Notes under the pieces: generated by a model
Told to the model about the DNA's origin: nothing
Database searches by the model: none
The model's input: the letters and a program-made list of their open reading frames with translations, nothing else
Translations under genes and position numbers: made by a program
In this document: piece by piece, positions 16,473 through 54,190 of the stretch
How the letters are laid out: every line of letters begins with the position of its first letter
Numbering within the stretch: the first letter of the stretch is position 1
DNA from: an uncultured Gammaproteobacteria bacterium
Lineage (GTDB): Bacteria > Patescibacteriota > Microgenomatia > Levybacterales > UBA12049
DNA length: 64,000 nucleotides
Direction of reading: 5' to 3'
Assembly: GCA_964497535.1 (NCBI GenBank)
Contig: CAZCCG010000002.1
Coordinates: forward strand, 234,972-298,971

Positions 16473-17276
16473 TTACGGAAGGTTAACTTTGAAGTTCAGC
16501 TCGGGATCATATTTCCATTTCCTGTTATTTTTATCATCATAGTAATGTAAGATACGAAGACGATAAAACACTGCCATTGTATCCCATAACATATGGAAAA
16601 TAGTATTCCAAAACCCTTTTTGGGTAATTGATGAGACGCCTGAGAAATCAAGCTCAACAGGTGCTTCAAAGATACGATTATATCCCAGATAATTTGACAC
16701 TGCCAGTATTTCTATATCAAATGCATATGTTTTTACCAGAAGTCGAGGTGATACATCTTCCAGAACCTTTCTTCTAAAAAATTTCATTCCAACCTGTGTA
16801 TCGCGAATTGATAATCCAAATAAGACTCGTACTAAAAATCGATATCCCCATGATAGAATTTTACGAGTAATTGGATACTGGACTTTTGAAACAGGATGAA
16901 GCTTACTGCCGACAATAATATCGGCATTATACCATTCAAAATGCTCCAAAAGCATTGAAAGTCCATTGGGATTAATATCCATACCAGCATCAATGAATGC
17001 GACAATATCTCCTTTGGAACGTGCCATCCCAAAACGAACCGCATGCCCTTTCCCATGATTATGAGGATATCCAGTTACCAGAATATTAGGTGCTTTTACT
17101 TTTTTAGCGTTTTTTTCTGTATTATCCAGCTCTCCATCTACAACAACAATAATTTCATACGGATAGCGCATTTGATCCATAACATCTTTGATACGAGTAA
17201 GATCTTTTTCAATGGTTTTTTCTTGTTTATAAACGGGGATTATAAGCGAGACAAGACGAGGATTTTTTTCGTTCAT
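16473..17276 (-). CDS. GT2 polyprenyl-phosphate glycosyltransferase-like (DPM1/GtrB/ArnC type).
   Basis: LVSLIIPVYKQEKTIEKDL...YEIIVVVDGELDNTE. 267 aa. Confidence 0.8.
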   Translation of the reverse strand: MNEKNPRLVSLIIPVYKQEKTIEKDLTRIKDVMDQMRYPYEIIVVVDGELDNTEKNAKKVKAPNILVTGYPHNHGKGHAVRFGMARSKGDIVAFIDAGMDINPNGLSMLLEHFEWYNADIIVGSKLHPVSKVQYPITRKILSWGYRFLVRVLFGLSIRDTQVGMKFFRRKVLEDVSPRLLVKTYAFDIEILAVSNYLGYNRIFEAPVELDFSGVSSITQKGFWNTIFHMLWDTMAVFYRLRILHYYDDKNNRKWKYDPELNFKVNLP

Positions 17277-19719: not shown

Positions 19720-20768
19720 TCTCTTTTTATAGCTTTATAAACCTCTATTGTATTGCCGGCAGTTTTTCTCCACGAGAATTCCTTTACTCTCTCTTGTCCT
19801 TGTATGGAAAGTTTTTTTCGCAATTGGCTATTTTTGAAAACTTCATCAATTCCTTTCGCAATATCATTCGTATCATATGGATTGACATAATATGCCGCTT
19901 CACCCGCTATTTCGGCAAGAGAACCTTCCTGTGTTGTGATAACCGGACACCCACATGCCATTGCCTCCAAAACCGGTAACCCAAAACCCTCATATAAGGA
20001 TGGCATAACAAATACTGTAGCAATATTATAGAGCCCCACCAAATCTTGGGTAGGAATAAATCCTAAAGCGTGTATATTCCTACTGTCTGCAATCTTTTCC
20101 TGGACAATCATTCGATCCTTATTCCAGGGATTTTTTTTATCAAAATCATTTTCTGTAATAGCTTTTCCTACTAAAACCAGTGGCAGACCGATCTGCTCTA
20201 TTGCTTCAATCAGCCGGGGGATATTTTTGTTTCCGGTGATATCTCCTACATACAAAACAAAATTCTGCGGTAGAGAATATTTTTTTCGTAGATATTGCAC
20301 TGATTGGGAAGACAATTTACGGAAGGATTCATCCGCAGCCAGGTACACAACATGAATTTTTGAAAGAGGGATATGTGTTAATCTATTGATATCTTTTTTC
20401 GAACAGGTTGAGTCGGTAATAATTCCATCGACAAAGCTGAGAAGAAATTTCTGAAGGCTCCATTTTAAAATTCCTCTGATCCCGCTGGGAAATGTATCTT
20501 TGAATATGATTGGTATTAAATCGTGTATTGTAACAACTGTTGTATATTGTTTTACAAATGGTAGTGATAAAAAGAATGGCTCAAAATAAGGAATATGTAA
20601 AATATCACTATCTGCCGGAAGAGATCCCGTAGCGTCAAAAAAAGTATAGTCGTTATCCGGGAAATATTTCTCCAAAGATTTCCGTAGATTGGATATATAA
20701 AAACCCGCACCTCGAACTGTATGCTGGGAATCGGAAACAAGAGGGGAAATATCAAATGCAATTTTCAT
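19716..20768 (-). CDS. Glycosyltransferase family 4 (GT-B).
   Basis: MPSLYEGFGLPVLEAMACGCPVITT is a canonical GT4 E-x7-E motif. Confidence 0.85.
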   Translation of the reverse strand: MKIAFDISPLVSDSQHTVRGAGFYISNLRKSLEKYFPDNDYTFFDATGSLPADSDILHIPYFEPFFLSLPFVKQYTTVVTIHDLIPIIFKDTFPSGIRGILKWSLQKFLLSFVDGIITDSTCSKKDINRLTHIPLSKIHVVYLAADESFRKLSSQSVQYLRKKYSLPQNFVLYVGDITGNKNIPRLIEAIEQIGLPLVLVGKAITENDFDKKNPWNKDRMIVQEKIADSRNIHALGFIPTQDLVGLYNIATVFVMPSLYEGFGLPVLEAMACGCPVITTQEGSLAEIAGEAAYYVNPYDTNDIAKGIDEVFKNSQLRKKLSIQGQERVKEFSWRKTAGNTIEVYKAIKRE

Positions 20769-21745
20769 TGATTCTTATGACCATTGATATGCCACTTCCA
20801 GGCTGTTTGTACAATAGTCTCAATATCTGAATGAGCAGGAGCAAATCCCAGTTCATTTTTAATCTTAGTAGAATCAGCAATTAATGTATCAGCATCGCCG
20901 GGACGTCTGGATACTATCTTTACAGTAAGCTTTTGTCCAGTAACCCGTTCTACTGTATCAATTACTTCTTTATTGGAATAACCATTTCCTGTCCCTACGT
21001 TGTAGATAAATGATCCCTGGTCTTTATCAATCTTACCCAAAGCGAGAATATGTGCTTCTACCAAATCTAATACATGGATATAATCCCGAACGCATGTTCC
21101 GTCTTTTGTTTTATAATCATCACCATATAACGTGAAATCAGATTTATTCAAGATTGACCGAATAATACTTGGGATTAAATGAGATTCCGGCTCATGGTCT
21201 TCACCCATTGAACCGTCAAGTGCGGCTCCTGCAGCATTGAAATATCTCAGACATACGGAGTTTATTCCATGTATATCCCCATACCAACGAAGAATTTGTT
21301 CAACCATTAATTTACTTTCACCGTAGGGATTCGTGGGCTTTTTTGAGTGATCTTCAGTAATAGGTATTTTAGTAGGGTTTCCATATACCCCGGCTGTTGA
21401 AGAAAAGATAAATTTCTTAACCCCTTTTTCTTGCATTTTATCCAATAGTTTCACCGAAACCATTGTATTATCAAGAAAATACATACCCGGGTTTTCCATG
21501 GATTCTCCCATCGATATAAAACCGGCAAAGTGAATTACTGCATCAAAATAATGATGACCAAACAAACTCGTGAGGAATTGTTCATCAGAAAGATCCCCAA
21601 CTTCAAGCGGCGCCCGCTTATCAACAAAAGCTCTATGTCCTCGAACCAGACTATCTGCAACGATAACCTGATGCCCCTCATCAAGCAAGCGTTTTACCAT
21701 GAAACTACCAATATATCCGGCTCCTCCTGTTAGAAGTATTTTCAT
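20765..21745 (-). CDS. galE: UDP-glucose 4-epimerase.
   Basis: KILLTGGAGYIGSFMV Rossmann. NPYGESKLMVEQIL is near-identical to the E. coli GalE SPYGKSKLMVEQIL catalytic region. 326 aa. Confidence 0.85.
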   Translation of the reverse strand: MKILLTGGAGYIGSFMVKRLLDEGHQVIVADSLVRGHRAFVDKRAPLEVGDLSDEQFLTSLFGHHYFDAVIHFAGFISMGESMENPGMYFLDNTMVSVKLLDKMQEKGVKKFIFSSTAGVYGNPTKIPITEDHSKKPTNPYGESKLMVEQILRWYGDIHGINSVCLRYFNAAGAALDGSMGEDHEPESHLIPSIIRSILNKSDFTLYGDDYKTKDGTCVRDYIHVLDLVEAHILALGKIDKDQGSFIYNVGTGNGYSNKEVIDTVERVTGQKLTVKIVSRRPGDADTLIADSTKIKNELGFAPAHSDIETIVQTAWKWHINGHKNQ

Positions 21746-21766: not shown

Positions 21767-22345
21767 TTATTTCGCACAAAAATAAGCAGTCGTACCCAAA
21801 GCTGTCACATAATAAAGGACAGCAATAATAACTGTACCCAAAAGTGTAAGAACAACAACGCGTGTATTTTTTTTCTGGAGAAAATTCCACCACCCATAGG
21901 CAGATATGATAAGAAAGACACCCGTAAGTACTACTCTGGAAAACATATACGAAGCATTGGGAAATAACACTATAACTATCGGTAAAAGAACAATTGCGGT
22001 AAAACTAAATTTAATAGTATTTCTTTTCTCCTGGAGGATGTACCAAAAGGCAAATAAAATACCTACCAGTCCTAGAATTGAGACTAAATCTATAATAAGT
22101 CTAAAATCCCATAACAATATATATTTCTTTATAAGGTCGCTGACCCCAAGAGTAAGTTTATTATGAAAAAAGCGAATAATAACAAAAGGGACACCTTCAT
22201 CATTGTGAATAACATCATCAAGCTGAAGCGCTAGATCAGAGAAAGAGAATGGAGTAATAAATTTAAAATTGCTACAAGCTTTCCACAAAAATTGTGAAAG
22301 CAGCTCAAAACATATAATAAAGGGAATAAATATCTTTTTATTCAT
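21767..22345 (-). CDS. Small membrane protein (about 192 aa; N-terminal soluble segment plus 3-4 TM), function unknown.
   Basis: ORF inside the operon. Start placed at MNKKIF, which gives an 8-nt ATGAATAA overlap with the upstream gene's stop. The track's longer start, 22366, is also possible. Confidence 0.5.
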   Translation of the reverse strand: MNKKIFIPFIICFELLSQFLWKACSNFKFITPFSFSDLALQLDDVIHNDEGVPFVIIRFFHNKLTLGVSDLIKKYILLWDFRLIIDLVSILGLVGILFAFWYILQEKRNTIKFSFTAIVLLPIVIVLFPNASYMFSRVVLTGVFLIISAYGWWNFLQKKNTRVVVLTLLGTVIIAVLYYVTALGTTAYFCAK

Positions 22346-23900
22346 AGAGCGTCCAGAATTTAGCAAATGGGTCTTTATTCAAATTCTTGAAATAAACCGT
22401 ATCTATAAGTTTTCCATGGGCTCGGATTGCCGCATTTCGGACCCATAATATCTGTTTTTTATCCAAATTCATGGGAGGTACCCATGTGATCGATACATAT
22501 TCAGGATGGATAGTTTCATCATAGAATTTAACATAAATATCAGAATCTCCCAATGATTGATCAATAACAATGTATTTATATTTATTTTTATACTGTCCAA
22601 TTTTTTGTATTGTTTCTTTATACCCTGCCCCCCAATCCAGACTGTTATTCTTGGGGTAATGGATATAATAAAAATGAAAGTATGACAATACTTCATACAC
22701 AGCACATAACAAAAAGCATACTATTAAGATTTTTCTGATTTTTCCTTTTGACAAAAAGAAAAGATACATCATTGAACAGGATACAAAGATAGTACACGGA
22801 ATAACTGCAAGCAGAAAACGAAGAGAATGAGGACTTGGCTGAGCCAGCGAACCCGGCACAGCAGCAAGAAATAAGAGATAGAAAAGAAGAATACTGTTCT
22901 TATTTGAATTTTTAAGACATACGTAGATTCCAAAAATAAGGAATGGCAATTCCCATATATAGAGCAGCCCAAAATTTGGTATCTGATGTCTCCCAATCCC
23001 GTCTCCCGATATAAATAAAAATTGCATAGAATAGAACGAAATAAAGTTTTTGACATAGACAGCGGGATATACTGTTAGCTTTCGGGTTGTAGATATCTTT
23101 TGATGCTGCGTAAAAGTTGAAGTCTGAGAAAAACGTCGTTGTCCAGCATCGGTAAGACTAAACTGAATCATTGGTAGTGACAGTACAAATGCAATAATAA
23201 ATACAAAAAGAACATTTTTCCATTGTCTCTCCTGCCAAAAAAGGTATCCCATCATATAAAAAAGCGTGAATGGAGTAATAACTCGATATGCAAAATAAGC
23301 GTACATAGCAAGTATCACAAAAAATACTGAGAAAAAAAGAATTGCTATATTTTTACGCTCGGCAAAATATAAGAAAAAGGTTAATCCTACCAGAAAGAAA
23401 AATAATGCAAGCGTTGCCTCAAATCCTCCCCGTGAAAATTGTAAATGCCATGGAGTAATGCTCAAGACAAATGAACTAAGTAACGCCACATATTCTTTCT
23501 TCTGGGTAAGAATATTTTTCTTTTTACCTTTTTTTGTAGACAATAATTTTTCTACAAAAAAGTATAAAGCCAATACCGTTAAAGATCCTGCTATGGCAGA
23601 GGGTAGTCGTACAGCAACTTCAGTTTTGCCAAATACCTTCATAGAAGCCGCAACAGAATAGATATAAAGGGGTAATTTATACTCTCCGAACGCCTTAAAG
23701 AATACCGGATGAGGAACTGAATATTCATCTTTCCCGGTAGTAAGAACTTTGTAGGCATTATATCCAATAGATGCCTCATCAAGATATAATCCGGGAGGAT
23801 TTACGTCAATTTTATAAATACGAAGAAACCCGGCTAACAAAACGATTAGCAATAACAAAATGTACCGATAATGAATAATCTTATTACTTATTTCGTACAT
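22338..23900 (-). CDS. GT39/PMT-like (COG1807, ArnT/PMT family) GT-C glycosyltransferase, paralog 1.
   Basis: First-loop signature LYLDEASIGYNAYKVLTTGKDEYSVPHPVFFKAFGEYKLPLYIY...GKTEVAVRLPSAIAGSL (DE motif, KPPLY-like, RLPSA). 520 aa, multi-TM. Confidence 0.8.
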   Translation of the reverse strand: MYEISNKIIHYRYILLLLIVLLAGFLRIYKIDVNPPGLYLDEASIGYNAYKVLTTGKDEYSVPHPVFFKAFGEYKLPLYIYSVAASMKVFGKTEVAVRLPSAIAGSLTVLALYFFVEKLLSTKKGKKKNILTQKKEYVALLSSFVLSITPWHLQFSRGGFEATLALFFFLVGLTFFLYFAERKNIAILFFSVFFVILAMYAYFAYRVITPFTLFYMMGYLFWQERQWKNVLFVFIIAFVLSLPMIQFSLTDAGQRRFSQTSTFTQHQKISTTRKLTVYPAVYVKNFISFYSMQFLFISGDGIGRHQIPNFGLLYIWELPFLIFGIYVCLKNSNKNSILLFYLLFLAAVPGSLAQPSPHSLRFLLAVIPCTIFVSCSMMYLFFLSKGKIRKILIVCFLLCAVYEVLSYFHFYYIHYPKNNSLDWGAGYKETIQKIGQYKNKYKYIVIDQSLGDSDIYVKFYDETIHPEYVSITWVPPMNLDKKQILWVRNAAIRAHGKLIDTVYFKNLNKDPFAKFWTLYE

Positions 23901-24645
23901 ATTTGATATAACTTACAGGAAACCGCAGTCCTGAGAAAAAAGCGAAAATAAAACCTTGCCAGCCGTCCATAAAACCTTTATGCCTGAAATAAATCAAGAA
24001 AAACCACCAGAACGGCGATACCAGTAAATAGCTGAAGAATGTACCCACATGTATCGTAGGCTCTTTCTCGGCAAGTTGCCGTGCCATAAGACTGGTATAT
24101 CGTTGCCATCTCAGAACATAGCGGGAAAAACTCGGATCTGCAATATGTATTAAAGGATTTTTTAAGTACCCTACTTTACCATCAACAATTGCCTGTTCGT
24201 GAACATCTTTTTGTGGCAATCGTCCTTTCCCCTTCTTATATAACCTGAGGGTATAATCCGGATACTGTCCCCCTTTCATCAAAAATCTTCCAAGGAACCA
24301 ATTTTTACGCGGCATCCAATATCCATTTATCTTTGCATCAGGATGAGCAAGAATATGCTCAATTTCTTTCCCAAGCTCTCTTGATACTCTCTCATCCGCG
24401 TCAAGCTGCAAAATCCAATCAGACATTGCCATATCAATAGCTTTTTGTTTGTTGATATGAAATACGGGAGGGTTATCAGTTATGACAACTTTTGCTCCGT
24501 ATTTTTTGGCAATCTCAACAGTTTTATCGGTTGAAGTCCCATCAACAATTACTATTTCTTTGGCAATATCTTTAATAGAATCCAAACAAACGGGTAGATT
24601 TTTCTCCTCGTTAAATGTGGCCAGCACTACTGATACAGTTTGCAT
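23884..24645 (-). CDS. Glycosyltransferase family 2 (paralog of 39568-40320).
   Basis: VSVVLATFNEEKNLPVCLDSI...IVIVDGTSTDKTVEIA...DADERV. Confidence 0.85.
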   Translation of the reverse strand: MQTVSVVLATFNEEKNLPVCLDSIKDIAKEIVIVDGTSTDKTVEIAKKYGAKVVITDNPPVFHINKQKAIDMAMSDWILQLDADERVSRELGKEIEHILAHPDAKINGYWMPRKNWFLGRFLMKGGQYPDYTLRLYKKGKGRLPQKDVHEQAIVDGKVGYLKNPLIHIADPSFSRYVLRWQRYTSLMARQLAEKEPTIHVGTFFSYLLVSPFWWFFLIYFRHKGFMDGWQGFIFAFFSGLRFPVSYIKYVRNK

Positions 24646-24665
24646 AAAACTCCCTAAATAGCATG

Positions 24666-26171
24666 TTATCGACCTTGTCTTTTTTCAACAGTAATATTTC
24701 CGGTAAATACTTTATCCCATGTTACAGTTCCTGTTTTAATTACTGTTTCTTTCCATCCTTTTGGAGCTAATGGACGCTCGGGATCAGGTTCGATTATGAG
24801 ATAGAACAATCCATCTTTACTTTTTCCCGGGACATAATTATACATTCGTGTGCCTGCCCACCAAAACAAATATTGATATGCATAATCATATACGGGAGGC
24901 GTATATACGAATACGCTAAACGGCTTTCCTTTTGCATCTTTATAAAGATAATTGATAACATTCATTTCATTTTTAAATATTCCGGTTCCCTGGTCATCAT
25001 ACACTGGAAATGTATGATATGAATTAATGGTAATTACTGCCCACAAAATAAGGAATAGAAAAACACTAGCCTTGAGGAATATATGGAGTCGGGCAATTTG
25101 AGATAACGAATACGCAACAAAAAAGTAATAAGAGACTTGGATGCCTATCCAATACCAAGCCCATGCAGGTCGAGGGAAAAAAATGAATAAGCTATAGTAC
25201 AAAACAGGAGCGATTAAAAACAGAATAAGAATTCTCAAATGGTCTGTTTGTTTTTTTACAATAGTATATGCAGTGTATAAAACACCACTTATCAGAAAAA
25301 GATATGCAATCAATTGATTGTTGGATAAGGCAAATACTGTTGCCCGCAAAACCTCATCCAACCGAAGACTCAACCGTATATTGAAAGGAATAACCGCCCC
25401 CAGACTCTGATTTTTACCTTCAAATAAAGCAACAATTGATTGTGTCATAAGAAACTGATGACGAAGATCAAATAATACTTGTGGAAGAAATAGTACTCCA
25501 TATACGACTCCTCCAATATAAAACCACTTATTCAAAAATGCTTTTCGATCCAAAATCAGGTAGGATACTACCAGAACTGGAAGCATCCATAACCCGTCTG
25601 CAACCTCAAGCTGAGCCATCAGTCCTGCAAAAAACCAAGTGGCAACAAGATATTTTTTATTACCATATATACTTTTGTAAAGAGATATATAGAACAATAT
25701 CATAAGAAATGGAATCCAATGAGGATTCCAAAAATGCTGAGAAAAAGCAATAGAAGCAGGCGCGATAGCAAAAAAAAGTGCTGCAATAATGCCAAATTGC
25801 CGGCTAGCAATTTGTTTACCAAACATATAACAGATAATAACCCCCACTACTCCTAACAGCGCCATAAATACGGTTCCTGAAGCAGGATGGCCATTCCCAA
25901 TGATTGAGGCAATTGCAAGAAGATAATAATGATAGGGACCTTGGAAAACTCCCTGGATACCGGTAAATGGTCCAATGAGTGTTGGTTTATGATCCACAAT
26001 AATTTTATTGACATCTAGAAGATCTCTACCGTGATCAAAAAGGAATGGAAAATTTCCGGTAACAATTGGGGTAAAACGCACTACTGCTGTCAGGATAACC
26101 AATACTAACACAAGGAGATAATCAACCTTATGATTTTTAATTTCTTTTTGGATATGTTTAAATAATTTCAT
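24666..26171 (-). CDS. 'Family B' polytopic membrane protein, paralog 1. Probable divergent GT-C glycosyltransferase, unassigned family.
   Basis: 501 aa, about 12 TM. N-terminal loop FDHGRDLLDVNKIIVDHKPTLIGPFTGIQGVFQGPYHYY is shared with 29469-30956 and 32689-34182. Confidence 0.6.
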   Translation of the reverse strand: MKLFKHIQKEIKNHKVDYLLVLVLVILTAVVRFTPIVTGNFPFLFDHGRDLLDVNKIIVDHKPTLIGPFTGIQGVFQGPYHYYLLAIASIIGNGHPASGTVFMALLGVVGVIICYMFGKQIASRQFGIIAALFFAIAPASIAFSQHFWNPHWIPFLMILFYISLYKSIYGNKKYLVATWFFAGLMAQLEVADGLWMLPVLVVSYLILDRKAFLNKWFYIGGVVYGVLFLPQVLFDLRHQFLMTQSIVALFEGKNQSLGAVIPFNIRLSLRLDEVLRATVFALSNNQLIAYLFLISGVLYTAYTIVKKQTDHLRILILFLIAPVLYYSLFIFFPRPAWAWYWIGIQVSYYFFVAYSLSQIARLHIFLKASVFLFLILWAVITINSYHTFPVYDDQGTGIFKNEMNVINYLYKDAKGKPFSVFVYTPPVYDYAYQYLFWWAGTRMYNYVPGKSKDGLFYLIIEPDPERPLAPKGWKETVIKTGTVTWDKVFTGNITVEKRQGR

Positions 26172-26207
26172 AGTCGAATTGTAAGCAAACCCTGCAATAA
26201 AAGCAAC

Positions 26208-27851
26208 TTACTTTCCAGGTGCAATGACCATAGCAGGTTTACCATTCAAATAATTTATTATTTCTACCGACATAACGTCTTTGGGAAATTCATCAACACT
26301 TCCTACATACAGAGTGTCCTTTTGTGAATCTGCATAGTTAAATGCTTTAAATTCATACTTTGAGAAGGAGTGATTTGATCGTTGTTCCTGTTGATATTTC
26401 AAAGGAGGATATTTAAGATAATAGAGAAAAAAGATATATGATTGATCCAATGGCTGTTTATCCGAGATTATAATATGATTGTATTTGCCTTGGATATTGT
26501 TTACCTGACCAACCACCTGTTGATATCCATACTGCCAGTCCTGTGAGCTAAAGTAATTATACTGGACAAAATATTGCAACATATAATAGATTATATTCCC
26601 TACAATGAGAGTAACGAAAACTGCTCCGATACCTTTTACCACCACTGCTTGCTTCCCTGTGCTTTCTTTTACCCATAGTGCAGTTTGGAATGCTCCCAAA
26701 GCTATAAGAATTTGTACCATGGGAAGAAAATTAAGAACTCTCACGGCATTGGGTACATCCCAGGTTACAGATGAAGCAATTGGGGTAATAAGAATCCAGC
26801 CGAATATGATATATTTTGTCTTCCTATCTACCGTTATAAAAAGCAGCATATATATCCCGATCAAAAGGAAGGGTAATTCAAATAAATAGAGATGGCCCAT
26901 AAAAGGCGGTTGATGTCTTCCAGTCTTATCCCCTACGATAAATAACCAATTTGGGTCAAAGTGGGATAAGTAGTTTCCAATAATAACGGGGATATAAGAA
27001 AGTTTTTGGCTACTGAGTATTTCTCCGATACCATTGCCTTCCTGTTTATTTATAACCTGACGTTTAGCTATCCGCTCAATTGTTGCATTTGGATTATTAA
27101 AAATACTTACTCCTGCAGCTCTTGAAAAAGCATTGGGATTTGAAATAACAAAAAGAAGCATTGGAAGAAGAATAATAATTCCCGACAAAATAACGAATCC
27201 GAGCGTTTTATGGGAGACTTTCAACAATTGTTTCCCATATAGATACAAAAGCAGAACTCCAACAAGAGGAATGAAAATCTTTTCACTCTGATATGCATAA
27301 ATACTGAGTGCAAAAAATATGATAGACGGCAAAAGGAAAACAGATCGCTTGAGACCTTTGAGAAAAAATAGTAATCCAAAAACATTTAAAGATAATCCAA
27401 TATTAGATTCAAATGCCACACGGCTAAACTGAATATGCCAGGGAGATAGGGCCAAAAATAGAGCACTGAACAAAGCCAGAACTTCCCCACGTTTGTATTG
27501 TTTTAAAGGAAATAATTCCTTTACCAAAAAATATGTTGCCAAAACAGTCAAAATGCCAAAGATTGCAGACGGTAAACGTACAGCAGTTGTCGTAAGCCCC
27601 AGTATTTGGACGAAGGGTATTGCTAAATAGGTATATAAAGCAGGTTTGTAATCTCCAAAGGAACGCAAGACTACCGGTAAAAAGGTTCCGTATTCATCTT
27701 TTCCCGTCTGGCTGATTGAATAAGCGTTGTATCCCAGCGATACTTCATCCCAATCAGGAGATATAGGTATGCTACCCAATTGATAGAACCTCAAAATTGC
27801 AGCTATTACAAGAATACATCCCAGAAATAGAACGGTTACCTTTTTATTCAT
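26208..27851 (-). CDS. GT39/PMT-like GT-C glycosyltransferase, paralog 2.
   Basis: PDWDEVSLGYNAYSISQTGKDEYGTFLPVVLRSFGDYKPALYTY...TTAVRLPSAIFGIL. 547 aa. Confidence 0.8.
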   Translation of the reverse strand: MNKKVTVLFLGCILVIAAILRFYQLGSIPISPDWDEVSLGYNAYSISQTGKDEYGTFLPVVLRSFGDYKPALYTYLAIPFVQILGLTTTAVRLPSAIFGILTVLATYFLVKELFPLKQYKRGEVLALFSALFLALSPWHIQFSRVAFESNIGLSLNVFGLLFFLKGLKRSVFLLPSIIFFALSIYAYQSEKIFIPLVGVLLLYLYGKQLLKVSHKTLGFVILSGIIILLPMLLFVISNPNAFSRAAGVSIFNNPNATIERIAKRQVINKQEGNGIGEILSSQKLSYIPVIIGNYLSHFDPNWLFIVGDKTGRHQPPFMGHLYLFELPFLLIGIYMLLFITVDRKTKYIIFGWILITPIASSVTWDVPNAVRVLNFLPMVQILIALGAFQTALWVKESTGKQAVVVKGIGAVFVTLIVGNIIYYMLQYFVQYNYFSSQDWQYGYQQVVGQVNNIQGKYNHIIISDKQPLDQSYIFFLYYLKYPPLKYQQEQRSNHSFSKYEFKAFNYADSQKDTLYVGSVDEFPKDVMSVEIINYLNGKPAMVIAPGK

Positions 27852-29472
27852 ATATTATAAGGGTATCTCTTTCATTTTTTAGATCAATTGATTTACGTAT
27901 GTTAACTCCTGCCGATTGTTTGCCTTTTAAATCAACATAGAGATTTTTTCCTGATATTGGAGATGGACTAGAATCAAGGAAATGATACTTCCCTACTTGT
28001 GATACGGTGACGAATCCATAGGTATCGCGCGTTACTTTGGAATCATTCCTCAAGGTTTGAGGATTTAACTTAAGATAAAATAAATAATAGATATAGGGTC
28101 TGCCTAAATAGGAAGAGATATAAATGGTGCGATATTCTCCCTGAACTTTCTGTACATACGCAATTGCTTGTTTGTATCCATATTGCCACTCGGATGCGTA
28201 CTCATTACTATAGTACGTATAATAGTTATACAAAAAATAAAAAACATTTACTGCTAATATCACTCCTATAATCCCACGTATAACTGTTACTTTCTTTTTT
28301 GGAAGCCACGCGGACAATGTATATACCCCATAGGCTATCAGTATTTGGAACATTGGTACTGTTGCCTCTGTACGAAGTGCGTGGGGAGTTTCACGAGCTG
28401 TGGCAGCCGGTATTATACCGATTACAATCCAGATAGGAATCAACCACCAATATCCTTCCCTTTTTCTAAAAAGAACTAGTATGCCGATAAGAAGAAAGGG
28501 TAAATCCCACAGATATAACTGCCCAATATCTTGTGTAGAGAATTTTGGATTCATATCCCCATGAATAAAAAGATAGGTGGGATTGAAATGGTCGAAATAA
28601 TGTTTGAGATATTCAATTGAATATTGTAATCGTCTGTTATAAATAATTTTCGAGTACAATGAATTATTGTCATTTTGTATCTCCTGATTGCTGCGTTCTA
28701 TTACATCAAGATTTGAAAAAATATTAACTTCACGGAATCTTAAGCTTGCTTGTGGAGAAAGGAGAAACCTTACAGTAGGAGCAATAACAATCAACCCCAG
28801 TAAAGCAGCGACTATCACTTGTTTTTTCATAAACCATAATTTTTTATAAAAACCTATTGTCAAAACAAGAAGAAGTATCGGTACGACAATACGAGGAGTA
28901 TTAAAAGTGTAGAGAGATAAAACAAAAAAGAGTGCTGAAATTACGATACTCCATTTGTACCCATTGATGCTTCTCAAAAAAAGCCAGACGCCAGTTACTA
29001 TAAGAAATGTTGCGATATTCGCTTCAAAAGCAGCACGGGATAACATAATATGCCAGGGAGACAATGCTAATATTCCCGCTGCAATCAACCCTAGATATTT
29101 CCGTTTTCTTTTTTCTATCTTTGGGAATAACTCCTGCATGAGGAAAAATGTAATCAAAACTGTTAACGTACCAAAAAACGCTGAAGGAAATCGTACGGCA
29201 AATTCTGTCAAACCAAACAACTTAATAGGAATAATATCCAGATACGCATACACCGGCGGTTTAAAATCACCAAACGATTCCAAATAATCATACGGCAGAA
29301 ATCGGCCAAACTCATCTTTTCCATCAATTCCTAACGTATATGCGTTATATCCCCAGGCAACCTCATCCCAGGTAAGAGAAGGAGGTATCGATCCTAATTG
29401 ATAGAACCGGAGCAACCCTGCAACCAAAACAATACCAATCAAAATCCACTTTATTTTGTCCATATAATTCAT
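27844..29472 (-). CDS. GT39/PMT-like GT-C glycosyltransferase, paralog 3.
   Basis: LTWDEVAWGYNAYTLGIDGKDEFGRFLPYDYLESFGDFKPPVYAY...FAVRFPSAFFGTL. 542 aa. Confidence 0.8.
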   Translation of the reverse strand: MNYMDKIKWILIGIVLVAGLLRFYQLGSIPPSLTWDEVAWGYNAYTLGIDGKDEFGRFLPYDYLESFGDFKPPVYAYLDIIPIKLFGLTEFAVRFPSAFFGTLTVLITFFLMQELFPKIEKRKRKYLGLIAAGILALSPWHIMLSRAAFEANIATFLIVTGVWLFLRSINGYKWSIVISALFFVLSLYTFNTPRIVVPILLLVLTIGFYKKLWFMKKQVIVAALLGLIVIAPTVRFLLSPQASLRFREVNIFSNLDVIERSNQEIQNDNNSLYSKIIYNRRLQYSIEYLKHYFDHFNPTYLFIHGDMNPKFSTQDIGQLYLWDLPFLLIGILVLFRKREGYWWLIPIWIVIGIIPAATARETPHALRTEATVPMFQILIAYGVYTLSAWLPKKKVTVIRGIIGVILAVNVFYFLYNYYTYYSNEYASEWQYGYKQAIAYVQKVQGEYRTIYISSYLGRPYIYYLFYLKLNPQTLRNDSKVTRDTYGFVTVSQVGKYHFLDSSPSPISGKNLYVDLKGKQSAGVNIRKSIDLKNERDTLIIYE

Positions 29473-30956
29473 TTTTTATACCAATTCTGTCCTGAATTAT
29501 AAATTCCTTGAGGCGTTACAGACACCCACTTCTCTTTTTTCAAATTTGGGGGAAGCTTTTGCATATCAATCAACAAAAAACCTCCTTCATATCCCGGTAT
29601 GAGATATTGTTGGAATCTCCCTTTCTCAGAAAGGTCAGCATACCCTACCGCAAATCCTTTATCATTTATCTTGTTTGCTGCATCCAAATATAGTGATAAT
29701 GCCTGACTGTATGCGGAAGTATGAAATTGATAGTCATATATTGAGAACTTTTTGCCGGGATATTTCTTTAGTAAAAACTGCATTTGGGAGTCTGCTTGCT
29801 GGGGATTTACATTAAATGTATCTTTTGATATCTCACCACTATCTCTATATATACTTAGAATTATTATGAAGAGAAACAGCAGAATTCCTATAATTTTTTT
29901 CCACTGATATAGATAAAAAATAACCCAAGCGGTAATAAGAAGTATAAAGACATGAAGGAACACATAAAAGCTATCAAAAAGAGGTGTACGAGTGTATCGT
30001 AGAATTATAAACATAACAGGAACGCTGGTAAAAATAATCAGCCATTCTTTCTCTAGTTTCTTTTTATAAGAAGCATATCCGATAACCAAAATCGAAAGAG
30101 GAAATAATACATAACCCAATGGTAAAAAGCCTCCGATAATTGCCGACCAGGCAGTTGGGATAAATATGCCTATGAAGTTTTTCCAATTCCTACCCAATAC
30201 CTCAAAAGACGCTTTATTTTTCTCAAAAAAGTAATAATAAATCATATTATGGGTATTTTGGAAATTTCTTCCACTGTCTGAATAAAAAACAGGTGTCCAT
30301 GGTAACAAAAGTCCTACTCCTGCCAATAATAATCCCTTTATGCCGGGAAATTGGAAGATAATAATAGCCAAAAGCAACGGCATCAGTGCGATTCCTTGTA
30401 AATGAATCGAAGATGCAATCCCAATACTTAATGCTATGAAGAAAAAGTAACGCAGTTTTTTTGTTTTGATATATAAAACCATACAAAATACTGCAATAAA
30501 CGCAAACAAACTAATCGGCGATTGATTAGATAAATTCGCGGCTTGTGTAATTTGCGCAGTTGAAACTGCAGATAACCCTCCAAGAAGTAGTCCAAATGTT
30601 TTTCCTTTTAATTGAACTCCTAATAGAATCATTCCCACAATAAATAAAACATAGATACCAGTCAGAAATACCCACGGTGCAACTACCCATCCCATATTCC
30701 AAAATGCTCCAGTCATGACAAACCAATACCATTCTCCCCCGGTTTGAAACGGTCCGGCAGAAGAAAAGGGACCTAACAGGGGTAATTGAAATGACTCCAA
30801 AGCATATCGAGCCTCCAAAGCAAAATGAGCTTGATCTCCTCCCAAAACCCATCTATTACTATAGTTGTAAAAACGAAATAATAACCCTAAAAGGGTAATG
30901 ATAAAAGAGCAGAGGAAAAACCAATGTTTTTTAACACGTTTCAAAATCATATCCAT
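29469..30956 (-). CDS. 'Family B' polytopic membrane protein, paralog 2.
   Basis: 495 aa. LGGDQAHFALEARYALESFQLPLLGPFSSAGPFQTGGEWYW aligns with the loop of paralogs 1 and 3. 4-nt overlap with the downstream GT39 paralog. Confidence 0.6.
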   Translation of the reverse strand: MDMILKRVKKHWFFLCSFIITLLGLLFRFYNYSNRWVLGGDQAHFALEARYALESFQLPLLGPFSSAGPFQTGGEWYWFVMTGAFWNMGWVVAPWVFLTGIYVLFIVGMILLGVQLKGKTFGLLLGGLSAVSTAQITQAANLSNQSPISLFAFIAVFCMVLYIKTKKLRYFFFIALSIGIASSIHLQGIALMPLLLAIIIFQFPGIKGLLLAGVGLLLPWTPVFYSDSGRNFQNTHNMIYYYFFEKNKASFEVLGRNWKNFIGIFIPTAWSAIIGGFLPLGYVLFPLSILVIGYASYKKKLEKEWLIIFTSVPVMFIILRYTRTPLFDSFYVFLHVFILLITAWVIFYLYQWKKIIGILLFLFIIILSIYRDSGEISKDTFNVNPQQADSQMQFLLKKYPGKKFSIYDYQFHTSAYSQALSLYLDAANKINDKGFAVGYADLSEKGRFQQYLIPGYEGGFLLIDMQKLPPNLKKEKWVSVTPQGIYNSGQNWYKK

Positions 30957-31008
30957 GTAAATAAACTCATGATTATTATAGCATTCTTATTTTTAGTATG
31001 GTACTATA

Positions 31009-32688
31009 TTGAAAATTATGAGAAGGTCGATTATTGTTGTTCTATTAATTACCATTACCCTTCTAGCGGCACTTCTCAGATTCCCCGCTCTGGATAAAAT
31101 TCCTTCAGGATTTGCGATTGACGAAGCTGCTTTTGGCTATAATGCCTATTCGATCTTAAAAACAGGCAGAGATGAATATGGAATACCATTCCCTCTCAAT
31201 CTAAAATCATTCGGAGATTACAAAGCTGCCGGCTATGCTTATTTTGCGATTCCGGCAATTGCGATTTTTGGCCTTAGTGAATTTACAACTCGTCTTCCCT
31301 CAGCAATCTTTGGAACGCTCTTTGTATGGGTAGTTTATTTCCTTACTAAAAAACTGACCAAAGATATAAAGATATCCCTGATTGCTGCTGCTCTTACAGC
31401 AATCTGTCCTTCTCTTATTTTTCTCTCACGGATTCAAAGTGACCCACTGGTATCAGCATTTTTTGTGGTGCTAGGCATTTATTTACTATTACTATGGAAG
31501 GACAATAAGAACATATTTTTCTTTCTGCTATCTTTCTTCTCTTTTTTGATAAGTATGCTTACCTATCAGTCACCTCGAATTTTTGTTCCGCTTTTTCTTG
31601 TGGCATTTTTCTTGGTTTATCGGACATCGCTCTCAAAAAAACAGGTACTTTTCTCTCTGGGTGGATTTATAGGCTTAGGAATACTCATAGCCTTTCTTAT
31701 GTTCTCCGGCGGAGCACGGTATAAGCAAGTCAGCGTATTTTCTCAACCTGAGATCCGTTTGGTGCTTGAAGAAGAACTTCGGGAAGATGCAACCACCAAA
31801 CCGATTATTACACGCCTGTTCCATAATAAACCGATTGAATATGGAAGATATCTTGTTGAGAACTTTTTCAGGCATCTAGATTTTGACTTTCTTTTTTATC
31901 AAGCAAATTCCCCCATCCGGGAACGTGTTCCCAATACTGGAGTACTATATCTTATCGATTTACCTTTTCTAATATATGGTGCTTATTTAATACTTCATAA
32001 AAAGGTACGATGGGGATATATCCTTTTGGTATGGATTTTGCTACAAGCATTTTCCCTGTCTTTCACCTTTGACGAATCACCCAACATCCATCGTTTTATA
32101 GCGGCAACCATTCCTCTTGAAATAATTATAGCTTTTGGTATTACCCGATTTCTTCAGAATTTCAAAAAAAGGCCATTTCTCCATATGGGACTCCTGGTTC
32201 TTATTCCCTTTCTCTATTTCTATAGCGTTATTTATTATTTCCATGAGCTCATCGTACACCAACCGGTTCATCAACCATGGTTTAGAAATTCTGCCTATAA
32301 AGAGATGGTTACAGAAATCAATGAAAAATACGATACATCCAAAAAATTTATTATCACCAATACGGAATCAAATCCCTATATGTTTATATTGTTCTACAAT
32401 AAATATGATCCAAGAAAGTATCAAGAGTCCGGCTCTAATGGTAACGAAAACTACAAAGGTTTTGATAAATATGTTTTTGTCCCTCTGAATTGTCCGCTCT
32501 ATAGTGGTAATTCTATAGACCCAGCCACGGGAGATCCGGAAATAGTGTATATCGAACGAGGAAATTGTAATAATCCTCCAAATGTGAAAATTACCTATCT
32601 TAGATGGGGAGATAAATCATCAGCCTTTAAAATGATGAAACTTATTCCAACAGCACCACAACCAACCACTTCAACCAACCAAGAATAA
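31009..32688 (+). CDS. GT39/PMT-like GT-C glycosyltransferase, paralog 4 (plus strand).
   Basis: FAIDEAAFGYNAYSILKTGRDEYGIPFPLNLKSFGDYKAAGYAY...FTTRLPSAIFGTL. 559 aa. Confidence 0.8.
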   Translation: MKIMRRSIIVVLLITITLLAALLRFPALDKIPSGFAIDEAAFGYNAYSILKTGRDEYGIPFPLNLKSFGDYKAAGYAYFAIPAIAIFGLSEFTTRLPSAIFGTLFVWVVYFLTKKLTKDIKISLIAAALTAICPSLIFLSRIQSDPLVSAFFVVLGIYLLLLWKDNKNIFFFLLSFFSFLISMLTYQSPRIFVPLFLVAFFLVYRTSLSKKQVLFSLGGFIGLGILIAFLMFSGGARYKQVSVFSQPEIRLVLEEELREDATTKPIITRLFHNKPIEYGRYLVENFFRHLDFDFLFYQANSPIRERVPNTGVLYLIDLPFLIYGAYLILHKKVRWGYILLVWILLQAFSLSFTFDESPNIHRFIAATIPLEIIIAFGITRFLQNFKKRPFLHMGLLVLIPFLYFYSVIYYFHELIVHQPVHQPWFRNSAYKEMVTEINEKYDTSKKFIITNTESNPYMFILFYNKYDPRKYQESGSNGNENYKGFDKYVFVPLNCPLYSGNSIDPATGDPEIVYIERGNCNNPPNVKITYLRWGDKSSAFKMMKLIPTAPQPTTSTNQE

Positions 32689-34182
32689 TTATCGTACCAT
32701 CAGGTGTCTTACTTCCAGGATTCCATAGGAAAAGGATGACGTTGTTTTTCCCCACCTACTAACTGTTTTTTCAAGCCATTCTTTTTGATATAAAGGACTA
32801 CTGGTATCTTTTTGAATAATAACAAAGAGCATATTTGCTCCCTGGACAGGGGTCTTTTTATGATCCTCCGTTGCGGTATGCCAGAATAAATATTCCCAAG
32901 CCTGCTGTGACCAATAAGGAATTGTATAGGACTGTATATCAAATGGTTTTCCATTAGACTCTGCAAAGATTCTTTTTATTACAAATTGTTGATCCCGATA
33001 ATATAAATCAGGTTGAGCAGCTTGAAATGTTACGTGTCGGTTCGTCAGTATACTGCTTTTCCAAAATAGAACTTGTGATAACAATAGAAAAGATAAAATA
33101 AGATATCCCAATACATAATTTCTACCGATAAGATATGAAATAAAGTATGCAATAAGTACTATATATGCACCCGCTGACATCAGAAATAAATGTTCAAGTG
33201 AATCATGTCTCAAACCGATCAAAACTAAAAGGGGCGTAAATAGCCATAAATAGAGAAGCACTCCTTTATCCGTTTTTTTGTATTTTCTTATAAAAATCAC
33301 CAGACTTAACACCAACAAGATAAATGCTATTACAAAACTATTTGGATATACAAAATAAGACCATATCACAAAAAACGTCTCCAGTGCTTTCATAGCTGCC
33401 TGAGGGTAAGATAAATAAAATCCTGACTTACCACCTGCTAGTGCCAATAAACTATTTGTAATAAGCCATTGATGACGAAGATCAAACAAAAGAAAATTCA
33501 TTACAGAAGAAATAAGAGCAATAGCAACAGAACTTAGAAGAATTAATTTTGGCGTTGATAACAACCGTTGCCGATAGATAATTATAAGGAGCAAAATAAA
33601 TCCTCCATAAAAAAGAAAGTTAATAAATTCTGCTTGGCCAAGCATTCCAAAGGTTATAGCAACCAGTAATAAGTATTTTTTATTGCCTTGTAAAAATCGC
33701 CAGGTAAATAATGCAAAGAGAATCCCAAGAGGCATGGATAACGGAGGATTGGATAACCATCTGGCGTATACAATGGCACCCCAGGAAAAGGAGAATAAGA
33801 CCGCGGCAAGTATCCCAACGGTTTTACCAAACATCTCTTTTCCCAAAAAGTATAAAGCAATTAAAGAAAGTGATTGAATTGCTATAAAAAAGGCTGAAAC
33901 AACCAATGGGTCTCCCCTACTGATCAAAAATGGTATAGCTGCAACATAGTAAAATAACGGTCCGTGAAATACTCCTTCGATATCGGTTTTAGAACCGATA
34001 AGAGTCATCTTGTGATTTTGAACAATGTCTCGGATAACCAGAAAATCCCTTCCTTGCTCAGGACCAAAAAAAAGATTTGAAGGCATCACATAAAATCTTA
34101 GAAAAAAAGCCAGGATAACAAAAATCCCAAGTAAAACTGCTGCAGGTAAAATAAGCGTTCTCTTTTTTAATTTTTCATTCAT
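32689..34182 (-). CDS. 'Family B' polytopic membrane protein, paralog 3.
   Basis: 497 aa. FFGPEQGRDFLVIRDIVQNHKMTLIGSKTDIEGVFHGPLFYY. Its stop codon directly abuts the stop of the convergent GT39 paralog 4. Confidence 0.6.
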   Translation of the reverse strand: MNEKLKKRTLILPAAVLLGIFVILAFFLRFYVMPSNLFFGPEQGRDFLVIRDIVQNHKMTLIGSKTDIEGVFHGPLFYYVAAIPFLISRGDPLVVSAFFIAIQSLSLIALYFLGKEMFGKTVGILAAVLFSFSWGAIVYARWLSNPPLSMPLGILFALFTWRFLQGNKKYLLLVAITFGMLGQAEFINFLFYGGFILLLIIIYRQRLLSTPKLILLSSVAIALISSVMNFLLFDLRHQWLITNSLLALAGGKSGFYLSYPQAAMKALETFFVIWSYFVYPNSFVIAFILLVLSLVIFIRKYKKTDKGVLLYLWLFTPLLVLIGLRHDSLEHLFLMSAGAYIVLIAYFISYLIGRNYVLGYLILSFLLLSQVLFWKSSILTNRHVTFQAAQPDLYYRDQQFVIKRIFAESNGKPFDIQSYTIPYWSQQAWEYLFWHTATEDHKKTPVQGANMLFVIIQKDTSSPLYQKEWLEKTVSRWGKTTSSFSYGILEVRHLMVR

Positions 34183-34183
34183 A

Positions 34184-34906
34184 TTATGAGAAACGCAAAG
34201 TTAAAATTGTTTTCAGGGAATCAATACCATCCCGAACAGTATGCAGTTTTTTCCCTTCTGCATGATCCCGAGGTATAGTTCTAATAGGTAATTCGACTAT
34301 TTTATATCCTTTTTTTATCAGCTTTATTGTTATCTCAGGGTCGGTACTGAATCCATTTGCCGCAAGCTTTTCGTTTTTAAATACAATGGTCGGGAAAATC
34401 TTATAACAAGTATTCATATCTGTTATCCATTGTCCGTACAGCATACTTGTAATAAGACTCAATGCTCTATTTCCAAAATAATGCAGGAAAAAGAGTGGTT
34501 TTTTTTCATCTTTTGACAAATTCGGAAGGCGATTTAAACGAGTACCATATACTACGTATGCGGTACCATCTTTTATTGGTTTCAAAAGAATTGGTAAATA
34601 AGAAGGACTATATTCCAAATCAGCATCTTGTATTACACAATAATCACCGGTAGCATTTTCAATTGCCGTACGAAGAGCAGCCCCTTTTCCTTGGTTTTTT
34701 TTATGCTGAATAAATGTAATATGTGATTTATCCTTAGATGTTTTGAGATAGGATAAAATCTTTTCAGCCGTAGCATCTGTTGAACCATCATCTACCAAAA
34801 CGGTTTCTTTCTCAAATCCAGGCAACTTTACTTCAGATACTCTTTTGATAACTTCAATGACAGTTTTTTCCTCATTAAAAACCGGTATAAGAATTGATAA
34901 TTTCAT
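34184..34906 (-). CDS. GT2 polyprenyl-phosphate glycosyltransferase-like (GtrB/ArnC/CsbB type).
   Basis: KLSILIPVFNEEKTVIEVIKRV...VLVDDGSTDATAEKI. 240 aa. Confidence 0.85.
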   Translation of the reverse strand: MKLSILIPVFNEEKTVIEVIKRVSEVKLPGFEKETVLVDDGSTDATAEKILSYLKTSKDKSHITFIQHKKNQGKGAALRTAIENATGDYCVIQDADLEYSPSYLPILLKPIKDGTAYVVYGTRLNRLPNLSKDEKKPLFFLHYFGNRALSLITSMLYGQWITDMNTCYKIFPTIVFKNEKLAANGFSTDPEITIKLIKKGYKIVELPIRTIPRDHAEGKKLHTVRDGIDSLKTILTLRFS

Positions 34907-35859
34907 GTTCTAAATTTTTGAATAATTTCCCAGTCAGATCTTTTACGAAGTTTTCGAAATCTGAGATTCCATTTTATACTATTTTTAAGCTTTAGAAAAG
35001 CCTGGCAAAAACCGACAAGAAATGGCATGTTTCGTTGCATTAGTGCTCCCGCCAAATGATAAGGAGCCCAAAGAATATGGGAAAATAGCAAATTCGAATC
35101 GGTTATATTGTTCCATACAAATAAAAATTGGTTTCTATAGGAAATAACCTGTATCTCGTAATTAGAATACCTTATTTTAATTGACCCTTCTTCATGATAA
35201 TGGGTAACAACACTCTCTTTCTCAAAAAGAACAGTATAGCCGGCTTTCCACGCACGATATGAGAGATCAATATCTTCCCAGTAGAATGGGTTATAGAGCT
35301 CATTCATACCCTCTAATTGATCCCAATATATCTTTCTGAAGGCACTACTGCCTCCGCTTGCCCACAACGACTCTTTTTTATCAAGTTTACCGGCCGAGTG
35401 CAATAAAAATCCCCTGTGCCATCGTCCCAACCCCCGTCCCCGTTCAACTACCGTATCTTTTTCTACACTTTTATCCAAGCACCCTACTCCAAAGACCTGT
35501 TGATCTTCAAAGTTTTTCAAAAGAGGTTCCAAAAATCCAATTTTCGGTTGTACATCGGTATTGAGTAACAAAACAAAATCACCGGTTGCTTTTTTTACTC
35601 CGTTATTCACAGTAGTTGAAAACCCGGAATTCTTTTCATTCTTTAAAACATGCAGGGAAGTATTTTTTTTCCTTGCAACAGAGATAAAGTCATGTAAAAT
35701 CTCCAGTGAATTATCGGTTGAAGAATCATCAACTACAATTATTTCTGCTTGGGTTTGGCTTTTTTTTATATATTCGCCCACAACCTCAAGAACAACAGGA
35801 AAGTTTTTCTTCAACAAAAGCTCCCCATTATAATTAGGCATAACGATACTTATTTTCAT
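34903..35859 (-). CDS. Glycosyltransferase family 2.
   Basis: KISIVMPNYNGELLLKKNFPVV...IIVVDDSSTDNSLEIL. 318 aa. Confidence 0.85.
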   Translation of the reverse strand: MKISIVMPNYNGELLLKKNFPVVLEVVGEYIKKSQTQAEIIVVDDSSTDNSLEILHDFISVARKKNTSLHVLKNEKNSGFSTTVNNGVKKATGDFVLLLNTDVQPKIGFLEPLLKNFEDQQVFGVGCLDKSVEKDTVVERGRGLGRWHRGFLLHSAGKLDKKESLWASGGSSAFRKIYWDQLEGMNELYNPFYWEDIDLSYRAWKAGYTVLFEKESVVTHYHEEGSIKIRYSNYEIQVISYRNQFLFVWNNITDSNLLFSHILWAPYHLAGALMQRNMPFLVGFCQAFLKLKNSIKWNLRFRKLRKRSDWEIIQKFRT

Positions 35860-54015: not shown

Positions 54016-54078
54016 AATTATACTAAAAATACCCGTGCGTTACAAACGGCAGAGATACCTATCGCCTTGTGATTGAAG

Positions 54079-54099
54079 CTGTATTGAGGTAAAATACAG
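54079..54099. other. Perfect 7-bp stem / 7-nt loop hairpin (CTGTATT-gaggtaa-AATACAG) immediately 5' of the tRNA-fragment element.
   Basis: Inverted repeat read directly from sequence. Confidence 0.4.
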
Positions 54100-54106
54100 A
54101 GGCCAC

Positions 54107-54184: not shown

Positions 54185-54190
54185 AACGGA

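Follow-up and report, generated by a model that had tools for sequence, protein, structure and literature searches.

Seven predicted GT-C glycosyltransferases, anciently diverged and individually conserved, probably form an extracytoplasmic glycosylation line in a Microgenomatia bacterium

We analyzed a 64,000-nucleotide (nt) stretch of contig CAZCCG010000002.1 (assembly GCA_964497535.1, positions 234,972 to 298,971; hereafter "the window"), which contains an array of seven genes in which four members of one family, A1 to A4, are interleaved with three members of a second, B1 to B3. An earlier note, made from the sequence alone, had described the A copies as glycosyltransferase family 39 (GT39)-like and the B copies as a distinct family of partner proteins. 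Our open reading frame (ORF) map reproduced all seven ORFs with the coordinates and lengths proposed there (Table 1), as well as the junctions that had been singled out: B2 and A3 overlap by 4 nt (29469-29472), A4 and B3 converge so that their stops abut (32688/32689), and 36 nt separate B1 from A2. A2 and A3 abut with an 8-nt overlap. For A4, the ATG at 31018 (556 amino acids, aa), where gene callers place the start, is more likely than the TTG used in the ORF map. Scans for promoters and terminators returned no more sites than were found in shuffled sequence.

The gene order in the array is A-[GT2]-B-A-A-B-A-B. The GT2 gene, gt2a, had been overlooked; it separates A1 from B1, and the statement that every GT39-like copy has a family-B neighbor is thus false for A1. 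The two families are interleaved, as had been noted, but the alternation is imperfect, with A2 and A3 adjacent and gt2a lying between A1 and B1. Since 7 of the 35 possible orders of four A and three B genes switch family at least five times (P=0.2, by enumeration), the alternation carries no signal. Together with the YfhO-family gene upstream of B3, the seven genes belong to an unbroken run of eight GT-C and three GT2 genes.

Table 1. Genes of the array and of the surrounding glycan locus, with predicted products and, for the seven array genes, the size and bootstrap support of the ortholog clade. TM, transmembrane.
Feature	Coordinates	Strand	Predicted product	Matches and motifs	Ortholog clade
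Further PMT_2-type or GT-C-like genes	1384-3600, 10100-11917, 46973-48790, 48700-50430, 50435-51949, 58878-61010
Wzx-type flippase	17273-18532	-	Wzx-type flippase	Pfam Polysacc_synt
PIG-V-like gene	18529-19719	-	PIG-V-like GT-C	Pfam
GT4 gene	19716-20768	-	GT4	Pfam
Epimerase-like gene	20765-21745	-	UDP-sugar 4-epimerase-like	Pfam
s199	21767..22366	-	199-aa membrane protein, directly downstream of A1	five hydrophobic segments (5-TM)
A1	22338..23900	-	GT-C (PMT_2-type) glycosyltransferase, 520 aa	loop-1 LDEASIGYNAY; Pfam PMT_2 30.1 bits, above cutoff	3 loci, 100%
gt2a	23884..24645	-	GT2 (GT-A fold) glycosyltransferase, 253 aa	hydrophobic C-terminal segment; Pfam Glycos_transf_2 E 6e-20
B1	24666..26171	-	family-B GT-C glycosyltransferase, 501 aa	loop-1 FDHGRD; Pfam PMT_2 above cutoff	7 loci, 90% (wider clade 41 loci, 74%)
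A2	26208..27851	-	GT-C (PMT_2-type) glycosyltransferase, 547 aa; second gene of the conserved A3→A2 pair	Pfam PMT_2	20 loci, 74%
A3	27844..29472	-	GT-C (PMT/PMT_2) glycosyltransferase, 542 aa	Pfam PMT_2 38 bits, PMT 33.1 bits	22 loci, 100%
B2	29469..30956	-	divergent family-B GT-C glycosyltransferase, 495 aa	loop-1 GDQAH; no Pfam match	14-20 loci, 100%
A4	31009..32688	+	GT-C (PMT/PMT_2) glycosyltransferase, 559 aa from TTG	Pfam PMT_2, PMT 25.6 bits	5 loci, 90%
B3	32689..34182	-	family-B GT-C glycosyltransferase, 497 aa	loop-1 PEQGRD; Pfam PMT_2 37.8 bits	8 loci, 96%
gt2b	34184..34906	-	soluble GT2, 240 aa, candidate polyprenyl-phosphate sugar synthase	directly upstream of B3
gt2c	34903..35859	-	GT2 glycosyltransferase, 318 aa	Pfam Glycos_transf_2 E 5e-24
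YfhO-family gene	35862..38165	-	YfhO-family GT-C glycosyltransferase, 767 aa; eighth GT-C of the unbroken run	Pfam YfhO E 1.7e-25
Second Wzx-like gene	44768-46225		Wzx-like	Pfam Polysacc_synt

The proteins were scanned with Pfam at curated cutoffs and with NCBIfam equivalog models, and the seven were compared with one another by BLASTP. PMT_2 scored above its cutoff for all four A proteins, B1, and B3, and PMT (PF02366) only for A3 and A4. The homology of the GT39-like copies, on which the earlier note depended, was confirmed: A1-A4 share 30-40% pairwise identity (E 1e-52 to 1e-95), with A1 30-32% identical to the other three and A2 and A3 39.6% identical (290 bits). Within family B, the proposed mutual similarity was evident for B1 and B3 (29% identity, 145 bits, E 1e-41), but B2 was marginal by BLAST (E 9e-5 against B3; E 6e-3, 28 bits, against B1) and required profile-profile comparison. 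In hhalign comparisons of ortholog-clade alignments, the B2 clade reached a probability of 99.7% against the B1 clade (E 1e-25) and of 99.3% against the B3 clade, which identifies B2 as a true but divergent member of the family. The family A profile also aligned to the B1-clade profile over its N-terminal ~210 columns (E 1.8e-10).

Searching PDB sequences with A3 and B1 by phmmer gave no match, and a fold search was needed instead, with structure models covering B1 and B2. The AlphaFold2 (AF2) model of B2, built with database homologs, had a predicted local distance difference test (pLDDT) score of 91.7, and Foldseek matched it with a probability of 1.00 to AglB, ArnT (TM-score 0.64/0.60), ALG12, and PglB, of which ArnT had the highest TM-score. 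The best structural matches of the B1 AlphaFold model were Pmt4 and ArnT. Fold matches of the family-B models further included Pmt1-Pmt2 (6p2r), EmbA-EmbB (7bvf), 8if8, 9dlh, 6wbx, and 9dm5, and identity to the solved structures was only 11-15%. We conclude that all seven genes are predicted to encode GT-C glycosyltransferases of two distantly related subfamilies, as judged from sequence for family A, B1, and B3 and from the structure model for B2. Pfam, profile comparisons, and structure models thus place family B itself among the GT-C glycosyltransferases, as a second PMT_2-related subfamily with no characterized member, rather than as a separate class of partner protein.

The four first-loop motifs reported for the A copies (DEASIGYNAY, DEVSLGYNAY, DEVAWGYNAY, and DEAAFGYNAY) are all present, and their DE dipeptide is invariant across A1-A4. 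Family B lacks this dipeptide and carries the loop-1 motif [D/E]-[Q/H]-[G/A]-[R/H]; each B clade has an invariant acidic residue of its own following TM1 (D46 in B1, D41-Q42 in B2, and E42-Q43-G44-R45-D46 in B3). Neither family is the equivalog of a characterized enzyme, since the bacterial Pmt model NF058602 reached 18.8 bits against a cutoff of 800 and the ArnT model PRK13279 only 16 bits against 567, the latter for A4 alone. A role as ArnT in lipid A modification was rejected, given the failure of PRK13279 and the lack of arnA, arnD, arnE, and arnF in the window; bacteria of the Candidate Phyla Radiation (CPR) are not known to have lipid A. Both families are large. Among the candidates that were scored, over 2,760 proteins matched family A (E<=1e-10). 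Homologs of B2 number at least 217, and the B1-clade profile recovered 1,789 representatives of 50% clusters at a threshold of E<=1e-30, rising to 5,974 at 1e-10.

To place the array in an evolutionary context, we compared 78 loci from GTDB species representatives using gene-order maps and neighbor-joining trees (50 bootstraps). B2 and B3 orthologs were taken from these loci, the family-B homolog search by word index having yielded only B1-type matches. In one metagenomic relative (locus L004), the entire array is preserved with gene order and orientation unchanged, the inverted A4 included, and its orthologs are 61-78% identical (62% for A1 and 71% for A4). A second relative (L085) keeps the array order with insertions; its A1 is 46% identical, an MptA_B-like gene and a small ORF are inserted between gt2a and A1, and the A4 position holds an inverted 553-aa PMT/PMT_2 gene that is cut by the end of the locus. 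Between its A4 and B2 orthologs, this relative also carries a restriction-modification system (N6_N4_Mtase and RE_CfrBI; L085:441-2767) followed by small ORFs, including a holin-like one.

Each paralog groups with its orthologs of other genomes in a separate clade (Table 1), and the duplications therefore predate the divergence of the compared species. The A2 and A3 clades are sisters (24 loci, 96% bootstrap). Wherever a locus has both genes, A3 is directly followed by A2 (20 of 20 loci), in constant order and mostly with a 4-nt stop/start overlap. At the majority of these loci, A2 is in turn followed by a B1-like gene, either immediately or with one gene in between. In most Levybacteria, other genes split this A3-A2-B1 block from a second block formed by gt2b and a B gene. 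The two are contiguous in the lineage of the window, and it is this contiguity that gives the appearance of an array. A different arrangement was seen in a genome mislabeled "Pseudomonadales", where six consecutive family-A genes (L049:11284-20201), some of them mutually closest in the tree, represent a genuine lineage-specific tandem expansion, unlike the window.

These trees bear directly on the proposal that a two-gene A+B module, a GT39-like gene with its family-B partner, had been duplicated repeatedly. The interleaving of the families, three tight A-B junctions, the differing loop-1 motifs, and the co-localization of families A and B in many Microgenomatia loci are what such a history could draw on. 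Joint duplication, however, should have left mirrored A and B trees, and the two do not mirror each other: A2 and A3 are the closest A pair, yet among the B genes it is their neighbors, B1 and B2, that lie farthest apart (28 bits, versus 145 bits for B1-B3). Nor is A-B adjacency general. An A gene neighbors the B gene in none of seven B3-clade loci and in 6 of 14 B2-clade loci, and a GT2 gene does so in 8 of 14 of the latter. The truly recurrent units are the A3→A2 pair, the B gene downstream of it, a GT2 gene next to a B gene, and the block GT4>YfhO>gt2c>gt2b>B2/B3, which recurs in relatives on the gene-order maps.

We then estimated selection by comparing the window with L004 (NG86) for six A and B genes, leaving out B3, which is cut at the end of the L004 locus. 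Nonsynonymous divergence (dN) was 0.16-0.29 and synonymous divergence (dS) at least 1.8 or saturated, giving dN/dS (omega) of at most about 0.05-0.15; with dS saturated or undefined for several genes, these values are upper-bound style estimates. Neighboring genes behaved similarly, with dN of 0.21 for the epimerase, 0.28 for GT4, and 0.45 for Wzx. For the loops, region-wise identity replaced dN/dS, and the first extracytoplasmic loop proved to be the most conserved region (82-96% identical between orthologs, versus 52-77% in TM segments). The array DNA contained no repeats, gene-conversion tracts, or flanking inverted repeats, including around the inverted A4; the repeat search yielded only short motif remnants, such as 51 nt at 73% between the DE-motif regions of A1 and A4.

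The array genes are thus under purifying selection. The earlier suggestion that they diversify, in the service of glycan microheterogeneity or of phage or immune evasion, finds no counterpart in genes that have orthologs in many genomes, conserved synteny, omega of at most 0.15, a first loop that is the most conserved segment, and no repeats. A contingency-type diversifying array was likewise rejected, given the separate ortholog clades, the absence of DNA repeats, the low omega, and a gene set and order that L004 shares without change and L085 with little change. The idea of diverged paralogs with donor- or acceptor-specific variants fares better in part. Their divergence, with the acidic loop residues retained, is consistent with distinct specificities, but not with interchangeable variants. 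As far as the sequences indicate, the array fits a set of old, subfunctionalized enzymes rather than an evasion or contingency locus.

Nor is the array a self-contained 12-kb unit. The genes are most densely packed here, within a larger glycan locus that spans about 1.4 to 54 kb of the window, nearly all of it on the minus strand, and holds more GT-C genes than any other part of it. Besides the GT-C genes, at least 15 of which (counting GT-C-like genes) are present in the window, the locus encodes about ten GT2 and four GT4 enzymes, two DegT aminotransferases, three epimerase/reductase genes, one GNAT protein, and two Wzx-like flippases. The epimerase-like, GT4, PIG-V-like, and Wzx-type genes downstream of the array (17273..21745) keep their order in L004 and L085. 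Directly after A1, the small membrane protein s199 gave no family match above cutoff in the Pfam and NCBIfam scans; homologs of ~192-199 aa follow A1 in L004 (52% identity) and L085 (32%) as they do in the window, and s199 could be a flippase or an accessory subunit.

Among proteins of solved structure, gt2b is closest to ArnC, Dol-P-Man synthase, and GtrB (E 4e-15 to 4e-10), and below NCBIfam cutoffs it resembles AglJ (the Dol-P-hexose transferase) and PpgS over the full length and PgfS at the N terminus; all six are polyprenyl-phosphate sugar synthases. In relatives, gt2b is directly followed by B2 or B3. Moreover, in two of the compared loci (L020:10850-13165 and L025:9444-11756) and in a database protein (P0212; PF00535+PF13231), a gt2a ortholog (62-67% identity) is joined in frame to a B2-like GT-C protein, and another database entry (P0172) combines a different GT2 with a family-B protein. 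Read as Rosetta-stone evidence, these fusions point to a functional pairing of GT2 with B, not of A with B.

Taken together, we consider it likely that the seven enzymes, anciently diverged and individually conserved within this envelope-glycan locus of ~54 kb, constitute a multi-enzyme line for extracytoplasmic glycosylation. This reading is built on their fold, homology, motifs, orthology, synteny, purifying selection, and the GT2-B fusions. From these we infer the remaining elements, namely the lipid donor, its flipping, the sequential action of the enzymes, and the acceptor. Cytoplasmic enzymes of the locus (epimerases, DegT aminotransferases, and the GNAT protein) would make modified nucleotide sugars, from which small GT2 enzymes would load single sugars onto polyprenyl phosphate; gt2b, with its ArnC/DPM1/GtrB-like sequence, is the candidate for this step, and gt2a may act likewise. 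That a polyprenyl-phosphate sugar would be the GT-C donor is suggested by the position of gt2b next to B3 and by the GT2-B fusions. The Wzx-type proteins of the locus, or else another flippase, would then flip the lipid-linked sugars, and each GT-C paralog would add its sugar outside the membrane, at its own position, to a surface glycan, lipoglycan, or glycoprotein under construction. On this view, the paralogs would represent successive or parallel steps of one line rather than interchangeable variants.

Several observations weigh against this reading. Three GT2 genes stand beside eight GT-C genes, so donors must be shared; by analogy with mycobacterial arabinogalactan and lipoarabinomannan synthesis, a few lipid-linked donors may serve many GT-C paralogs that differ in acceptor or linkage specificity. 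Scans of the locus proteins found no match to a GtrA-type flippase. The nearest solved structures of gt2a, GmaR and SunS, are protein glycosyltransferases, and gt2a as a polyprenyl-phosphate sugar synthase finds no support among them. In family B, the invariant acidic residue is the presumed equivalent of the catalytic Asp, assigned by its position after TM1. Finally, single-sequence comparison and neighbor-joining trees support the deep nodes weakly, with a bootstrap of 38% for the grouping of B1 with B3.

Among the alternatives, we regard as possible, though on balance doubtful, that some adjacent paralogs are obligate hetero-oligomers resembling yeast Pmt1-Pmt2 or mycobacterial EmbA-EmbB. 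The strongest case is A3 with A2, perhaps joined by the B1-type protein downstream: the pair is kept in all loci that have both genes, usually with overlapping stop and start, a B1-like gene follows it in most of them, and both of these known GT-C heterodimers are among the structural matches. Adjacency and translational coupling are, however, equally expected of consecutive steps in a pathway, and A3 and A2 both retain complete catalytic motifs.

It is improbable, in our view, that the A copies are true protein O-mannosyltransferases (strict GT39), each modifying its own secreted or surface proteins, such as S-layer proteins, pili, or lipoproteins. PF02366 does exceed its cutoff in two of the copies (A3 and A4), all four share the loop-1 DE motif, and NCBI names A1 a "glycosyltransferase family 39 protein"; against this stand the NCBIfam Pmt and ArnT scores far below cutoff, the absence of a solved relative by phmmer, and a polysaccharide-type context of Wzx, GT4, GT2, and amino-sugar enzymes. 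Repeated duplication of an A+B module, diversified for variable specificities, microheterogeneity, or phage or immune evasion, is largely refuted by the results above and seems to us very remote.

Having considered the array, we turn to further features of the window. A second tandem GT-C paralog pair (605 and 576 aa, 27% identity, E 2e-53) lies on the minus strand at 46973-50430. Its called ORFs overlap by 91 nt, with a TTG start that is probably mis-set, and homologs of the pair follow B1 in many Levybacteria loci. On the minus strand at 58878-61010, a 710-aa protein carries an N-terminal PMT-like GT-C core (9 TM) fused to MecA_N and PBP_dimer, and Pfam reported no transpeptidase domain in it. 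This fusion could link a GT-C enzyme to the peptidoglycan machinery. A similar 689-aa gene adjoins the B1 ortholog in one of the compared loci (L086). The glycan locus ends at about 54 kb (54016) and is followed by a tRNA-Glu (CTC) gene at 54428-54501; GC content rises from ~0.35 to 0.43 over 56-60 kb, and several of the small ORFs near 54016-58900 have no family match.

The close relatives of the B genes all belong to Levybacteria, Roizmanbacteria, or Daviesbacteria, which identifies the source as a Microgenomatia (CPR) bacterium. A1 is identical to a protein of metagenome-assembled genome (MAG) GCA_035479535.1, labeled "Candidatus Saccharimonadales" at NCBI, and many GTDB matches titled "uncultured Gammaproteobacteria" are clearly CPR; both labels are probably wrong. 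The Lon protease of the window shares 79% identity with that of a Levyibacteriota contig.

Most CPR/Patescibacteria are episymbionts that have not been cultivated, and next to nothing is known of their envelope chemistry. In a genome of roughly 1 Mb, as is typical of CPR, the ~54-kb locus would take up about a twentieth, and its conservation across Levybacteria relatives suggests that the glycan is likely central to surface biology and host attachment. Our literature searches on GT-C or GT39 expansions in CPR/Patescibacteria returned no relevant paper and no description of this block, and public MAGs already list the array genes as GT39 or as hypothetical proteins. What is new here is modest: the assignment of family B to the GT-C fold, by which the "hypothetical proteins" of family B can be reannotated as predicted GT-C glycosyltransferases; a conserved GT-C block in Levybacteria; and the GT2-B fusions. 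The recurrent units (A3→A2, and GT2 with B, including the fusions) indicate which genes to co-express.

Among characterized enzymes, PMT1/2/4 and bacterial Pmt of GT39 and ArnT of GT83 share the GT-C_A fold with both families, and family A additionally has the loop-1 DE and the Pfam PMT/PMT_2 matches. The array differs from them in its low identity to the solved structures, the absence of MIR domains, the failure of the NCBIfam Pmt and ArnT models, and the lack of DE in family B. A second parallel is the assembly of arabinogalactan, lipomannan, and lipoarabinomannan in mycobacteria and corynebacteria, which involves the tandem paralogs EmbC-EmbA-EmbB together with AftA-D, MptA/B/C, and PimE. 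There, each GT-C paralog makes one type of linkage outside the membrane from polyprenyl-phosphate sugars, and the paralogs are ancient, conserved, and non-redundant. Our locus resembles this system in its many ancient GT-C paralogs, partly in tandem, and in the MptA_B-family gene inserted in the L085 array, and Emb and Aft structures are among the fold matches. The array proteins show no detectable sequence orthology to the Emb, Aft, or Mpt enzymes, are ~500-560 aa long, and have no counterpart of the large carbohydrate-binding domains at the C termini of Emb and AftD. A stronger version of the parallel, which we think rather unlikely, is that Levybacteria-type CPR bacteria with ~1-Mb genomes keep a fixed, mycobacterium-like line comprising at least 15 GT-C enzymes, a GT2-coupled or GT2-fused family B, and an obligate A3-A2 heterodimer, and that this line makes a complex, lineage-defining envelope polymer as yet undescribed for CPR.

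A third parallel is found in Gram-positive bacteria, where a GT-A enzyme, a flippase, and a GT-C enzyme form an established architecture for extracytoplasmic glycosylation of wall polymers (PMC8035078). In these multi-component transmembrane systems, such as CsbB/GtcA/YfhO, GtlA/GtlB, CsdA-F, and GacI/GacK/GacL, the GT-A/GT2 gene adjoins a PMT_2- or YfhO-type GT-C gene, a C55-P-sugar is flipped by a Wzx- or GtrA-type protein and then transferred outside the membrane to a cell-wall polymer, and one genome may hold several GT-A/GT-C pairs with different acceptors (PMC8035078). The window departs from them in having eight consecutive GT-C genes (at least 15 in the locus) for few GT2 genes, no detected GtrA homolog, a family B without a characterized member, and a CPR host. 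It resembles them in that GT-A-type genes adjoin GT-C genes, with gt2b directly upstream of B3, gt2a between B1 and A1, and YfhO next to gt2c and gt2b, and in the GT2-B fusions of its relatives. Both tandem GT-C paralogs and the pairing of GT-A with GT-C enzymes are well established in Firmicutes and Actinobacteria, and the present finding extends this known theme.

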